From the IMG/VR virus record IMGVR_UViG_2872703611_000002: 53,140 nucleotides of DNA. The stretch is one strand, 5' to 3'. Numbering within the stretch: position 1 is the stretch's first letter; each line of letters starts with the position of its first letter. Position numbers: made by a program. This stretch comes from a virus (taxonomy: Duplodnaviria > Heunggongvirae > Uroviricota > Caudoviricetes). This document shows, piece by piece, positions 30,206 to 36,200 of the stretch.

Positions 30206-33200
30206 GCCTGCTGAGCTAAGTCGGCACAGGTTCCTCAAGAGAAATAAAAATGACCGCGCTTACATCCCCTTCGGAACCGGGTACCGATATTAATAATGCC
30301 AGCTCTCTTTTCAATGGAAAATCATATCAAGATTTGTAAATATACGTATATATTTTTATTTTTTATGAAATAAAGAAATTATTAAATGCATATTTAACGA
30401 TTATTTTTTATTTCAGTTACAGTCTGATTAAATCTCTCTTCTTCCAGTTCCACGCCAATTGCGCGACGTCCCAGTGAAAGTGCTGCTTTTATTGTTGAGC
30501 CAGACCCCATAAAAAAATCAGCGACCAAATCACCGGGGCGACTGCTGGCAGTAATTATCTGACGCAACATATCTGCCGGTTTTTCACAGGGATGTTTGCC
30601 TGGATAATACTGCACAGGCTTGTGCGTCCAGACATCCGTATACGGAACAGCAGCTGATACGGAAAAATAACGCCGCAGGGATTTATACTCCTCCTGCAGG
30701 CTGGCATATTGCCGGTTCAGTTCACTGTATGTGCTGACCAGCTGGTGGTGCGGCTTTTCCAGCTCCCCGCGCTGGTGTTTTTCTGCTGCAACACGCGCGA
30801 ACAGCGCCTGAAGTTTTTTGTAATCAGCCTCGTTCGGCAACTGCCACTGACTGGCACCAAACCAGTGTGACGCCATGTTTTTCTTTCCGGTGGCTTCCGC
30901 TATCTGTTTTGATGTTATTCCCAGAGATTCTCGCGCATCACGAAAGTAAGAAATCAGCGGGGCCATGACGCACTGTTTAAGCTCGCGCCCCTTTGCCGCA
31001 TAGCCGTCATTTTTGGGCTGGTATGGCCCCTGATAATGTTCAGCAAACAGAATGCGCTCTGTTGCCGGGAAATACGCCCGCAGGCTTTCCTTGTTGCATC
31101 CGTTCCAGCGTCCGGACGGCTTCGCCCAGATAATGTGGTTCAGCACATTAAAGCGTTCACGCATCATGATTTCGATATCAGATGCCAGGCGATGCCCACA
31201 GAACAGGTAAAGGCTTCCGGCAGGTTTCAACACCCGCCAGAACTGGGCCAGACAGTGGTCCAGCCACTTAAGGTAATCTTCGTCCCCTTTCCACTGATTG
31301 TCCCAACCGTTGGGTTTCACCTTGAAGTAAGGCGGATCGGTAACAATCAGGTCAATGGAATCATCAGGCAGGGACTGAATAAAATGCAGGCAATCAGCGT
31401 TGATTAAATCAACACTGTTTATTTTTACAGTATTTTTCATGGATCAGTAAGCGTAACTCTGGTAGGCTCACTCTGCTTTTGCGCTAAAGCAGTGGGCCGT
31501 GGTTCGCTTGTGACCAGTAAGCATGAGCGAATGGCTGGCAGGTGCTACCAACACCCACCAGCCGCCCATTTTCACAAATTAAAAGCCCTTCATTGCTGAA
31601 GACGTCTGTAACAGCCGAACTGGTAATCTGCCAGCCCCGCCATAACCAACTGGGTCAGTATTAACTGACAGCGTTCGCGTGAAAGGTATGTGTTTTGTGC
31701 AATCTCCCCGACTGTTGCCGGTTCGATGCTTAATTCATTAAAAACAACTTTCGCCGTTTCTGTCATATCTTGCTGTTTTAGCATGTCTTTTTCCCTTCTG
31801 GTTAACATGACATACCAATAACTCTTGTCTAAAAAGCCAGCAAGATAAAAAGTCAGTATTCACTACCACCAGCGTGTTTACCGTACTGCACCAAGTTTAC
31901 AGGTACAAAAAAACCCGCTCGACGGCGGGTTTAAGCTGTGTGGCGAAGTAACCACTCTTAACAGATTACAAGAATTTTTGCGTACGCGTTAATTTTTTTG
32001 TATTTTTCTCATTACACAACATATAAACCCTATGTAAAAAATGACAGCAGAAATAGCCGTATTTAACAAGACCGCAGTAGCTTTAGCCGCAGATTCAGCT
32101 GTAACGATTTCTGGAGGCGGCAAACATAAAATCTATAATGGCGCTGAAAAGCTTTTCGCTCTCACTAAACATCATCCTGTAGGTTTGATGGTATATGGAA
32201 CTGGTGATCTCTGCACAGCTCCATGGGAGCTTATCATTAAGGCTTATAGAAAGGATTTAGGCTCTAAATGTTTTGACTCTTTGGAGGAATATGCTGAGGA
32301 TTTCTTCAATTATCTACAGTCAGCTAAATCAATCATCACACCAGGTATGCGTGAGGCTCATCTTTATCACTTCCTGAGCGAGATTGTATTCAGCATGCTT
32401 GTTGATGCTTTTTCTGAAGGTCTCGAACCAACATATCTCGTTAACTTCGATAAGAATCAATTTGTTACAGACCTCACGAATTATTGCAACGATCTCCTTA
32501 CAAAATTATCTGATATTAATTACTTTGATGGTTTTACTCCGGATGATGAACAAGCAGCCCAAACCTATGCTTCATCAATTACCCAACGCATCATTGCTCA
32601 AAAGTTTAGTGACTTTGATTCAATATCCATAACTCCACAGTTGACAAAAGCAGTTAGTGATGTATTGGCAGCTATGATATGCAAGCAAAGTGATATTGGT
32701 TCCGTCTCTGGGATTGTGATTGCAGGTTATGGCGATAAAGACTATTACCCTAAAGTATTATCATATGAAGTTTGTGGCTTCTTTAATGATAAAATAAGGA
32801 AAACCACAGATGCTGACAAGTGCTGCATCACTCCTAATTGCGGCGTGACTCCCTTTGCGCAAGAGGATGAAGTTTCTGCTTTCATGCAAGGAGCTAGTTC
32901 ACATCTTATCCAAAATCTTCATGCTGAGTATCAACGTTCTATCGGCGATTTACTTGATGGTATTGATTCAGTAATCACAGATTTGGTGCCCACTTCAGAT
33001 ATCGAAGGAGCCAAGGATGCTATAGTTGATGTAGTGCGCAGAACTGTTTCCGATTGCAAGGGGCGTATTGATAGCTTTGTCCGAGAAAACTATGTTGACA
33101 AAGTCGTAAATATGATCGAGTTTTTACCCAAGCAAGATTTAGCTTATATGGCTGAATCATTAGTAAATTTAACCGCTTTCAAGCGCAAGGTCTCCGATGA

Positions 33201-36200
33201 TACTGAAACAGTGGGAGGCCCCATAGATGTTGCAATCATTTCTAAAGCTGATGGTTTTATCTGGGTTAAACGTAAGCACTATTTTGCAAAAGAACTGAAC
33301 CATCACTACTTTTCACGGTCATAGCAACAAATAGACAAGGGGAACACATGTCACTTAAGCAAGCCTATGAAAGAACTCAACCCAAAAGCATCAATGATTT
33401 CTTTCAGTTGAGTACTTCTGGAAAGAGTCGACGTACTGTAACAAGCCAATCTAACTTCTTTACTAAATTGAACAAAACATTACCTGCACAATCCTAAAAT
33501 GCTAAAAGCCACTACGGTGGCTTTTAGCTTTTATTTACATGCAATAACGCTCGTAATACCCTCTACAAAACCAATTGCAGTTTGTAATTCCTTTCTAATC
33601 GTGCCATCTGAACACCTTCTCTTTTTGGCAATAGTGCGTAATGAGATACCAATAACAAAGTGGGCTATGATGAGCTCATATTCCTCTGGTTTATACCTTC
33701 TCAACCGAGCCACACAACTGTCTATCATAATGCCTTCGTCATCATCACACTGAATCCGTGACTTTTTACCATGAGGTAAAAGCCCCTTGAAGCCCGCTGC
33801 TATCGGTTGCCAATCGACACCACTATTTTCTGCTGCAGCCCATGCCCCCCAGCGGTCTAAAACCTCATACATATCACGCCCCATTACTATCACCTCTAAT
33901 TTCGCAAATCTTCACGCCCAGCCGACCACCAGGAACGAGCTTACCGCGCACAATATTGATTTCATCAAACTGCTCGTCGTCTATGAGAAGCCCCGCATGC
34001 GTCAGTGCATCCAGCGGTGCTTTCAGGATATTGTCCAGGTCCCGACGGCGCTTATCCGGCGGCTCTGCAGTAATTTTTATTGCCAGCCTTCCGGACAGGT
34101 TTAATTTCAGCCGCTGCTGGCGGACAATAAGTGCCACATCCCGGCGATAACGCTCACCGGCTTTTGATACAAAATATGTGCTGCCACGACGACGCCAGTA
34201 GGTGTTCACCGTCGGCGGGTAAGGCAAAACAAACTCTATACGCATCAGTAACCTCTTTTACCCGAGCACGCCGGTTGCAAAGGCGCGATCAAGAAAACGA
34301 AAAATTAAATCAATCTGGGAACCATGCTTTTCTTCGAACGCCAGCGGATCCGCATGAAGCTCGTTGTGATGCTCCCGACACAGCGGTAGCGTGAAAATAT
34401 CGTGGGATTTTGTCCCTATTCCGCCCTGACCATGACCAATCAGGTGATGGGGATCGTCGGCTGGCTTATCACAACACGCACACGGCTGTGTCTTTACCCA
34501 GCGCGTATATTTCTCATTTACCCAACGGCGACGTTTAGGTCGCTTCATGAAAGATTCCGGAGACTCCGGATCAACAGCAATGCTGACCACCGTCTTTTCC
34601 TGTGGTGGATTTTGCTGGTGGGCGTGAGGCAGCGGCGCAAGATTTTTTGTGCGCTGCTTCAGTATGCTGGTGGCGGTCTGCTCTCCCGGTACGATGTCGC
34701 TTTCGCGGTACACCGAGCGAATTTTTTCCGCACGTAACCCCAGAGAACGACGTAATACTACCTCCGGTAGTGCGTCCGCCACCTGATTGCAGACAGCCCA
34801 CCAGGATAATTCAGCCAGCGATAATTCCCGCTCCTGTGTGCCATTCATTGCATGGCGCATGACATCAATCATCCATGCTGACAGGTTTTGGTGAGCAAGT
34901 TGCTCAAGTGATTCGGAGGACTGGTCACGCAACTGGTTGTCACAGTGCCAGCACAACACCATCGCGCCAGCACCGTAACGATGTATGACGGTTTCGCTGT
35001 GATGGTAATCACCATGAGGCCACTGGCAGGATTTAATATGGCGCAACAGCCAGTCAGACAATGCACCAGCACCACCAGCAGCACGAATCACCCGTGCGTT
35101 ACTGAAAAACGGCAGCAATGTTTTGTCTTCCACTAGCGGCTGGCGAACGGCAGGAACGACCCCGGACGGCAGATTACGCATGCTTTTCGGTTCCGGCTCC
35201 ACCAGTACCCGGGTATTGTGGAATACCGGCATGGATTCCCGGCCCGGCTTAACGATCACCAGCCCGAGTTCCGGTACCAGAACAGGTCGAAGTAATACCC
35301 GCACGTTACCTCCAGATGCGTTGCTGGAATGTGCGGGACGGACGCGGTGGGCGTTCGGAGTAAGGAAGCCTGACGGAGATTATCCAGTGACGATAATCGA
35401 GGCTGAGGGCTTTCTTAATCTCGTATCCGTGTCTGCGGTAGCACTGAATTAGCCACTCGGCCTGTTCTTCAGTGCATGGGGGATGCTGGAACCAGTCAGA
35501 TTTGAAAGTGCGGGAACGCCGCCCGTGCCTGCTGGCAAAGACGGCAGAATCATCAGAATTGTGTAATTTGGTATCGTGCGCCATCGGTTGTCTCTGCTGG
35601 CGCAGCAGGTGCCAGTTGTTCAGGCTGGCGTGCGAATTGTAAACCAGAATGCTAGGAAAAAACAAAACCCGCCGAAGCGGGTTAAGTGCGGGTGCGTTGA
35701 GGATGCCTGACACATCAGAGGTGGCGAGGGATTCTCCCCCGCCTGGTCTCTTACTCCTCAGGTTCGTAAGCTGTGAAGACAGCGACCTCCGTCTGGCCGG
35801 TTCGGATTCGTACCTCGCAGAGGTCTTTCCTCGTTACCAGTGCCGTCACTATGACGGTTAAACAGATGACGATCAGGGCGATTAACATCGCCTTTTGCTG
35901 CTTCATAGCCTGCTTCTCCTTGCCTTTCGGCACGTAAGAGGCTAACCTAGATTTGCCGTTCATAGATTGAGCCTCAGATTAATGTTAAGCGTCTTGCAGG
36001 ACGCGTAATGTTAACTGGGGCTTTTCTCTATCTGCCTTTGGTGTTCATGCCTGAGACAGATAGCCTCAAGCACCCGCAGCCATTCTACTTAACTCCCGTT
36101 ACCTCGCCAATATAAAATCAATCAGAAAGGCGATCCATAAGAACAACAGCAAGACAATAAATTGCCATTACAGCTGCAATAGCCAGCGCACATTTGAGAA

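Follow-up and report, generated by a model that had tools for sequence, protein, structure and literature searches.

A proteasome-fold peptidase and a small basic partner protein form a candidate two-gene conflict cassette on prophages and other mobile elements

Introduction

Several defense modules of mobile elements rely on a protease, as is the case of Lit with the Gol peptide, the CHAT protease with gasdermin, and CapP with CapH. These proteases are metallo-, cysteine, or serine enzymes with folds unrelated to that of the proteasome, and proteasome-family enzymes themselves are textbook machines of proteostasis. In 2021, Fuchs, Alva, and Lupas described by computation 22 new families of proteasome homologs (PMC8665760). 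One of the most populous is PMI-4 (“Proteasome homolog with Multiple Insertions”), a family of unknown function with long insertions after H1/H2 and between H3 and H4, found in all major bacterial phyla, in Euryarchaeota, and in phages; the catalog reported no genomic context or co-occurrence suggestive of a function (PMC8665760). Here, we analyze a 53,140-nt stretch of DNA from a tailed phage (IMG/VR record IMGVR_UViG_2872703611_000002), called the window below, with all coordinates counted along its whole length. It carries a lambdoid prophage with an AT-rich cassette of two genes, a 427-aa Thr-dependent N-terminal-nucleophile (Ntn) hydrolase of the proteasome fold (gene 1) and a 49-aa basic protein (gene 2). 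We propose, tentatively, that this peptidase and its partner are a mobile conflict module expressed in the lysogen.

Gene 1 encodes a proteasome fold with two helical insertions

Gene 1 occupies positions 32041..33324 (+ strand) and its product begins with MTAEIAVFNK. An earlier reading of the window (the original prediction) had described this 427-aa open reading frame (ORF) as encoding an Ntn hydrolase with a Met-Thr N terminus, and the ORF is present as claimed. The Met-Thr start is firm, since the ATG is the first start codon possible past the upstream stop. The ORF corresponds to a real gene and not to a chance one, with more than 6300 homologs at an E value of ≤0.001 and 5970 cluster representatives (50% identity) matching the family profile. 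PHROG 5990, a family whose function is unknown, covers the protein over its full length.

The structural model of the gene 1 product is an alpha-beta-beta-alpha sandwich that can be superposed on 20S proteasome subunits, in agreement with the reading as an Ntn hydrolase, and the proteasome fold of the protein can be considered secure. The model has strands S1 (residues 4-8), S2 (12-18), S4 (37-40), S5 (47-53), S6-S8 (223-256), and S10/S11 (395-411), with helices H1 (62-73), H2 (81-94), H3 (275-283), H4 (364-385), and H5 (417-425). The order of these elements is that of a beta subunit (S1-S5, H1-H2, S6-S9, H3, H4, S10-S11, H5) plus two helical inserts, so that the core consists of residues 1-95, 216-287, and 353-427. 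The first insertion spans about residues 96-215, its helices (101-214) lying between H2 and S6 (223-229), and the second, a long helical hairpin, spans about residues 288-352, with helices (287-360) between H3 and H4. Together, these insertions amount to about 185 residues and explain the doubled size of the protein relative to a canonical beta subunit. They evolve fast, and their probable role would be that of a domain for specificity or sensing, or of a lid.

The relationship to the proteasome was also traced by profile comparisons. A profile of 40 relatives searched against the sequences of the PDB matched the Thermoplasma acidophilum beta subunit with a sub-significant E value of about 1.4, placing query residues 5-42 on residues 4-38 of the beta subunit and query residues 392-409 on residues 168-185. 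These are the expected places, and the likeness to archaeal beta subunits at both ends of the protein, pointed out in the original prediction, was thereby recovered. When the insertions were excised, the hhalign comparison of an 83-sequence family profile with 121 archaeal beta subunits (the beta query being identical to PDB 3c91_H) aligned the core end to end over 182 columns (E = 3.5e-5; probability, 72%). When they were left in, the alignment fell out of register, and comparison of the full-length profile with a single beta sequence aligned just the C-terminal 20 residues. The PF00227 profile check proposed in the original prediction gave no match to the 427-aa protein even at an E value of ≤10, and a Foldseek search of the viral structures of BFVD returned nothing significant.

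Relation to known proteasome homologs

Gene 1 most probably belongs to the PMI-4 class, as judged from its architecture and from the distribution published for this family (representative HDY66466.1). Both have a proteasome-like core without a propeptide, the two insertion sites of PMI-4 match those of the gene 1 model, and both belong to a very large and diverse family spread over bacterial phyla, archaea, and phages. In contrast to the published description of PMI-4, the family of the window shows a conserved small downstream gene and a context of cargo, satellites, and prophage hotspots, which we describe below. The suggestion that a phage-borne protease of this kind had not been characterized must be tempered as to novelty, because proteasome homologs in phages, including PMI-4, were cataloged in 2021 (PMC8665760). 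Our literature search on function found nothing beyond that catalog for proteasome-like proteins in phage defense or for WP_000123148.

Other known relatives differ more clearly. The 20S beta subunit (MEROPS T1, PF00227) has a propeptide and an alpha subunit as partner, whereas gene 1 has neither, adds about 185 residues, and does not match PF00227. HslV has about 175 residues without insertions and is a housekeeping protein encoded with hslU; gene 1 was rejected as an HslV since it contains insertions, is rare cargo, and has no conserved AAA+ neighbor. The connectase (MJ0548 family) is restricted to methanogens and acts on MtrA, which is not a small adjacent ORF; its signature is a two-helix insertion between S3 and S4, lying over the active site, with H1/H2 absent (PMC8665760). 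In gene 1, only about 3 residues are added between these strands and H1/H2 are present (residues 62-94), and this identity was rejected as well. The gammaproteobacterial homolog (GPH) was discarded because of its narrow reported distribution and its apparent C-terminal extra domain, both unlike gene 1.

Given this fold and the catalytic triad described below, the protein could be thought of as a housekeeping or stress-related self-compartmentalizing protease, comparable to HslV, Anbu, or BPH, that sits in a prophage by chance. We give this very little credence. The allele is found in only 9 of 5426 complete Escherichia coli genomes and the family is patchy and carried by mobile elements, no AAA+ partner is conserved, and the insertions are located where the 20S particle makes its pore and its ring-ring contacts (PMC8665760). 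The position of these insertions makes a closed barrel unlikely, and ring assembly of the gene 1 product is unlikely in general.

The active site

Conservation was assessed on 83 relatives from Proteobacteria, Firmicutes, Actinobacteria, Bacteroidetes, Planctomycetota, Verrucomicrobiota, Nitrospirota, Chloroflexi, Acidobacteriota, Spirochaetes, and several archaeal lineages. Thr2 and Asp18 were present in all of them (83/83 each, 100%) and Lys37 in all but one (82/83, 99%). Both the profile search and hhalign aligned these residues with Thr1, Glu17, and Lys33 of the T. acidophilum beta subunit. Asp18 and Lys37 correspond to mature positions 17 and 36, the places given for them in the original prediction. 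The position of the start is retained in the relatives even when the start codon is GTG or TTG (Val/Leu-Thr); since all relatives begin with Met-Thr or Val/Leu-Thr, the enzyme has no propeptide. Methionine aminopeptidase accepts Thr at position 2 and permits removal of the Met. In gene 1, this removal would expose the Thr nucleophile without autoprocessing. A 460-aa protein (P0064) of Vibrio parahaemolyticus (L007-L011) carries a 21-residue N-terminal extension ahead of MTAEIA; its start was probably mis-called, since every other relative starts with Met-Thr.

The candidates for the equivalent of the oxyanion residue Gly47 are Gly53 (conserved in 82%) and Gly48 (94%), which occupy the right strand and loop, with the register uncertain by 1 to 2 residues. 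Other invariant residues are specific to the family: Ser19, Lys30, Glu63, Lys67, Arg70, Gln274, Glu389 (Glu/Asp), Thr390 (Thr/Ser), and Asp396. The C-terminal motif ETVGGPIDVAxISKxDGFxW is nearly invariant.

A small basic partner is encoded downstream of gene 1

The original prediction overlooked a 49-aa ORF (gene 2; 33348..33497, + strand) downstream of the peptidase gene. It begins 24 nt past the gene 1 stop and is preceded by an AAGGGG Shine-Dalgarno sequence 6 nt upstream. An equivalent small ORF was first noticed in the gene calls of Alteromonas and Vibrio relatives. To put a number on this association, we used 80 distant loci (one genome per species) and, as a control, random positions in the same loci (200 trials). 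An ORF of 45 to 85 aa beginning within -40 to +45 nt of the enzyme stop was found in 75 of the 80 loci, against 24% at random positions (maximum, 35%). Of 68 IMG/VR viral loci, nearly all had a small ORF as well, and records of Streptococcus satellite phages and of a Providencia phage annotate it beside the enzyme. Such annotation is rare: only 5 clusters of the small partner were found in a database of 5.8 billion proteins, and RefSeq omits the 49-aa ORF in E. coli H3. In most relatives, the two genes overlap or follow each other closely, an arrangement suggestive of translational coupling.

No third conserved gene was found within 5 kb on either side in the 80 distant loci. The immediate neighbors vary widely: profiling 149 of them with Pfam and PADLOC gave 159 Pfam families, none of them dominant. 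As no other gene is conserved nearby, the functional unit is the pair.

The partners are basic and the enzymes acidic. The 49-aa protein of the window has a net charge of +6 and a pI of 10.6, and partners in general have a median length of 61 aa, a median net charge of +5, and a pI of 9.7, without a membrane-like segment. The enzymes have a median charge of -8, with a charge of -18 for that of the window. The window's partner is predicted to be mostly disordered alone, the AF2 model showing one helix only (residues 3-10; pLDDT, 66). Inside a given clade, the partners are clearly conserved. The commonest type of partner reads roughly K-rich ... Y-x-S-M-x-E-F-E-K-K-Y-F-P ... D-P-x-x-L-G ... L-A-K-E-S-L-x-K-I-K. 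A gammaproteobacterial type carries E-L-R-E-W-Q-K-K-F-N-P and an aromatic C-terminal motif at its end, and the enterobacterial type, to which the window's protein belongs, is described by LKQ[AS][YF]xRxQPK[ST][VI][KN]DFF, a variable basic linker, and [NS]FF[TK][KL]L. One clade of partners (L119-L134, L015-L017, L002, L078) ends in a hydrophobic-Phe-[STNC]-[WLMI] motif (SFFSR, LFCW, SFTW, FSFSW, AFSL, RFTI), a terminus that, speculatively, recalls the HbYX docking tails of proteasome activators.

These properties bear on two other explanations of the pair. In the first one, the pair is an addiction module similar to toxin-antitoxin systems, in which the peptidase becomes toxic when its labile partner is lost, thus stabilizing the element without direct phage defense. 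The two closely coupled genes, one of them small and fast-evolving, their carriage on plasmids, satellites, and prophages, the lack of a further conserved partner, and the predicted disorder of the small protein alone, as in many antitoxins, would all fit this explanation. On the other hand, a Pfam scan of 9 diverse partners revealed no domain, and hence no recognizable DNA-binding antitoxin domain (RHH, HTH, or AbrB), and the large gene comes first, which is the less common order. We regard addiction as unlikely to be the whole function. Many toxin-antitoxin modules also defend against phages, and this explanation therefore overlaps with that of a conflict module.

The second explanation is that gene 1 is a sequence-specific processing enzyme or transpeptidase resembling connectase, for which the small protein would be the dedicated substrate, yielding an active peptide or a modified protein. 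A conserved small protein encoded next to the enzyme could be seen in this way, and yet the insertion of connectase lies between S3 and S4 (PMC8665760), whereas those of gene 1 lie after H2 and between H3 and H4. Moreover, the conserved motifs of the partners differ between clades, the D-P-x-x-L-G motif in our reading resembles a helix N-cap rather than a cleavage site, and a dedicated substrate leaves the spread by mobile elements unexplained. A dedicated processing enzyme is in our view distinctly improbable.

The pair is spread by mobile elements

Relatives of the pair were identified on 137 IMG/VR viral contigs, and 13 of 50,697 phage or satellite records carry the family. These records include seven Streptococcus satellite phages, where the pair constitutes the last two genes of the element, as well as Providencia, Stenotrophomonas, Porphyromonas, and Streptococcus phages. 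Ten plasmids also carry relatives. In Alteromonas, a relative is found on a small island with an integrase and Phage_GPA, and in Vibrio one adjoins an integrase and a type I restriction-modification (R-M) system. Two types of context were observed in prophages: the pair is located either between Q/NinG and the holin/lysozyme genes or beside CI-type repressors (HTH_3 plus Peptidase_S24), RecE, and YdaS/T. Full-length relatives at 33 to 40% identity occur in Proteobacteria, Firmicutes, Actinobacteria, Bacteroidetes, the Planctomycetes-Verrucomicrobia-Chlamydiae group, Nitrospirae, Chloroflexi, Acidobacteria, Spirochaetes, and archaea. This patchy spread over phyla suggests horizontal transfer.

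Since the cassette is carried by phages, it might serve the phage itself, for example by degrading immune proteins of the host as a counter-defense protease or by modulating lysis or development. This would be consistent with its location between Q and the lysis genes, with the copy of a Providencia phage, which immediately precedes the holin gene on the strand of the late genes, and with the fact that other proteasome homologs (PPH and AAH) are common in phages (PMC8665760). But the same pair is found in satellites, plasmids, chromosomal islands beside R-M systems, and archaea. The late operon runs in the opposite direction to the pair in the window, as it does in most prophages of enterobacteria, and the pair is rare in sequenced phages, as the 13 records and the lack of a match in BFVD indicate. 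A benefit restricted to the phage is therefore very unlikely.

The cassette occupies a cargo hotspot

The AT-rich cassette extends approximately over positions 32014..33555, as defined by breaks of homology with E. coli FCI54 and a shift in GC content. Homology to FCI54 stops at about 32013 and is found again, within the 3' end of Q, from about 33555 on; FCI54 has other cargo in between. The GC content is 0.36 to 0.44 within the cassette versus 0.50 to 0.58 in the flanks. The terminator scan found an intrinsic terminator closing the two-gene unit (33501..33538, + strand), with a 12-bp stem (GCTAAAAGCCAC/GTGGCTTTTAGC), a 4-nt loop, and a TTTTATTTAC tail. This strong terminator (33501-33528) directly follows gene 2, and on the opposite strand the Q stop codon is 2 nt away.

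At the other end, the segment at 31933..32013 (+ strand) is a conserved flank of the hotspot, nearly identical in FCI54 upstream of unrelated cargo. A promoter consensus scan of this segment gave nothing above threshold. Inspection of the sequence by eye revealed a weak sigma-70-like element (TTGCGT, 17 nt, TATTTT) at about 31979-32007, which may drive the cargo. Gene 1 has no Shine-Dalgarno sequence (window 32023-32043; upstream sequence ...TATAAACCCTATGTAAAAAATG). The peptidase ATG has a TATAAA element only about 12 nt 5' of it; being so near, this element implies that the mRNA of the peptidase may be leaderless or have a very short leader. Before the flank, at 31911..31932 on the - strand, the scan revealed a terminator-like hairpin, AAACCCGCCGTCGAGCGGGTTT then TTTTGTACCT, and in phage SfV the corresponding stretch carries a terminator annotation. 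Located on the late-gene strand, the hairpin is a feature of the backbone outside the cassette. This hairpin (31932-31911) and about 80 bp beyond it are kept in many lambdoid phages with different cargo and Q types.

The placement of the cargo in the region from Q to the lysis genes, given in the original prediction, was confirmed by the RefSeq annotation of E. coli H3. Particular hotspots of prophages and satellites are known to harbor defense systems (PMC9519451, PMC9122126). The slot between Q and the adjacent 64/72-aa gene (window positions 31809-33555) is a hypervariable cargo hotspot of E. coli lambdoid prophages (L172, L175, L176, L177, L178), in which the cargo is always on the strand opposite to Q and the late genes. 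In strain YD786, the slot contains a KAP NTPase that corresponds to the PADLOC defense candidate PDC-S20 (E = 4.5e-177) and resembles PifA and QatA. In phage cdtI, it contains orf54 and orf53, and in several strains it contains a pair of 87-aa and 246-aa genes. This gap of lambdoid prophages is a cargo hotspot worth mining.

The adjacent HTH-like gene belongs to the prophage backbone

A 72-aa ORF (31590..31808, - strand) is divergent from gene 1 across a 232-bp gap, as claimed in the original prediction, and matches PHROG 331 (E = 5e-35). It is probably translated from Met9 as a protein of 64 aa (31590..31784), because RefSeq uses this start and because the homolog in Providencia phage PSTRCR_117lys (47% identity) begins at the position equivalent to Met9. 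Its similarity to winged helix-turn-helix (HTH) domains is weak: the matches to DprA_WH (E = 0.0052), TrmB (E = 0.0082), and MarR_2 (E = 0.025) were all below the Pfam cutoffs. No function is known for PHROG 331; in some phage records, the gene goes under the name of a TrmB family regulator.

The original prediction proposed that this protein specifically regulates the peptidase gene. The divergent layout with its 232-bp gap, the weak winged-HTH similarity, and the TrmB name would agree with such a role. Part of the gap is also conserved ahead of other cargoes, and the conservation of about 200 bp before differing cargoes makes a general role of the 64/72-aa gene in cargo control possible. The distribution of the gene argues against a dedicated regulator. 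Among the 5426 complete E. coli genomes, the full 2.2-kb region is present in 9, mostly enterotoxigenic E. coli (ETEC), whereas the part with the 72-aa gene and the methylase is present in 3058. The gene is part of the lambdoid backbone; elsewhere it is found beside unrelated cargo or straight after Q with no cargo between. In PSTRCR_117lys, the homolog directly follows Q, and the peptidase pair is further on, between the methylase and the holin genes, on the late-gene strand. No HTH neighbor is conserved in any of the 80 distant loci, and a terminator for the strand of the 72-aa gene separates it from the cassette. Being far commoner than the cassette, the gene is not its dedicated regulator, and specific control of the peptidase by this protein is highly improbable. 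The structural insight of the original prediction was right, which is notable since curated models miss the kinship, and the HTH partner that it proposed was wrong.

What the pair may do

The presence of the pair on prophages, satellites, plasmids, and islands, in slots of exclusion and defense genes, leads us to favor, tentatively, a mobile conflict module expressed in the lysogen. The cassette is transcribed opposite to the phage late genes and has its own terminator. In this module, the basic and disordered gene 2 protein would bind the acidic enzyme as its cognate regulator and could be a pseudo-substrate, an inhibitor, an antitoxin-like subunit, or an adaptor. A trigger such as infection would free or redirect the peptidase, which would then cleave host or phage proteins, so that a competing phage is blocked or element-free cells are killed. 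In concept, such a mobile protease gated by, or directed at, a small cognate protein would be analogous to the Lit, CHAT, and CapP modules. No enzyme of the Ntn/proteasome fold was found as a validated defense protein in the literature or in PADLOC (PADLOC-DB 2.0).

A more far-reaching version of the conflict module is that the pair represents a hitherto unrecognized, very widespread two-component conflict or immune system of Bacteria and Archaea. It would consist of a non-barrel Thr peptidase of the proteasome family and a tiny disordered protein, the latter either gating the peptidase or being processed by it, with the fast-evolving insertions sensing the invader and proteolysis executing the response. 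We consider this version possible but doubtful.

Several observations weigh against the reading as a conflict module. Neither the 427-aa protein nor the 49-aa protein had a meaningful match to Pfam, NCBIfam, or PADLOC models; the kinship of gene 1 with the proteasome is visible solely by structure and profile-profile comparison. The confidence of the structural model is low at residues 20-35 and 267-272, beside the active site. The positions aligned with the pair Ser129/Asp166 and with Ser169 of the proteasome are not conserved in the family of gene 1. Ser129/Asp166 form the second pair of the proposed proteasome “pentad” (PMC11947121), and since these residues are not kept, the enzyme may depart from the chemistry of classical proteasome subunits. 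As far as can be judged from conservation, the nearby invariants Glu389 (Glu/Asp, 99%) and Thr390 (Thr/Ser, 100%) might substitute for them. As for the partner, a hidden Markov model of its common type fails to detect the window's 49-aa protein (E = 3.2); as sequence likeness fades between clades, homology of the small partners across clades rests on their position and on graded intermediates. Lastly, chromosomal copies have heterogeneous neighbors among which recognizable defense genes are a minority, and the orientation relative to the late genes is not kept, being antisense in the window and in most enterobacterial prophages and on the same strand in the Providencia phage.

The surrounding prophage

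The gene order around the cassette is that of a lambdoid prophage and agrees with the RefSeq annotation of the identical stretch of E. coli H3. On the Q side, the backbone comprises antiterminator Q (33531..33893, - strand; 120 aa, “antiterminator Q family protein” in RefSeq), rusA (33874..34245, - strand), and a DUF968/NinG-like gene (34258..35304, - strand). Beyond the other end of the cassette region are a DNA methyltransferase gene, the methylase mentioned above (30394..31440), and then, before the lysis genes, tRNA-Thr(TGT) (30150..30225, - strand) and tRNA-Gly(TCC) (30072..30146, - strand). This tRNA pair (30072-30225) is in the same place where Shiga toxin (Stx) phages have tRNAs upstream of stx. 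The cassette might lie between the late promoter pR' and its terminator, but pR' was not located in the window; Q-dependent transcription may either begin downstream of the cargo or pass through it in antisense.

The window begins within a truncated ydfJ (1-1284, - strand), a gene for a major facilitator superfamily transporter that marks the attachment region of the prophage, which is therefore integrated at the Qin/ydfJ site. The truncated ydfJ ORF has 427 aa, the length of the peptidase, by coincidence. Comparison of window positions 22000-31000 with E. coli 120899, 103605, 204446, and 504237 revealed an insertion of an IS66-family element (ISCro1) in the terminase/portal region of several ETEC genomes whose prophage is otherwise identical. 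With this region interrupted, some copies of the prophage are probably defective.

Implications

The conserved and almost unannotated partner gene, absent from the 2021 catalog, is new here, together with the definition of the cassette and of its hotspot. With this partner, what was an orphan hypothetical protein becomes part of a defined system of two components, open to direct tests in E. coli, for which the native host, panels of phages, and inhibitors directed at Thr1 are at hand. Proteasome-family enzymes are seen as devoted to proteostasis; that a large uncharacterized branch of them, comprising thousands of clusters, travels as two-gene mobile cargo suggests another use for the fold, probably where mobile elements and phages come into conflict. 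If the immune reading were true, gene 1 would provide the first example of prokaryotic immunity served by an enzyme of the proteasome fold.

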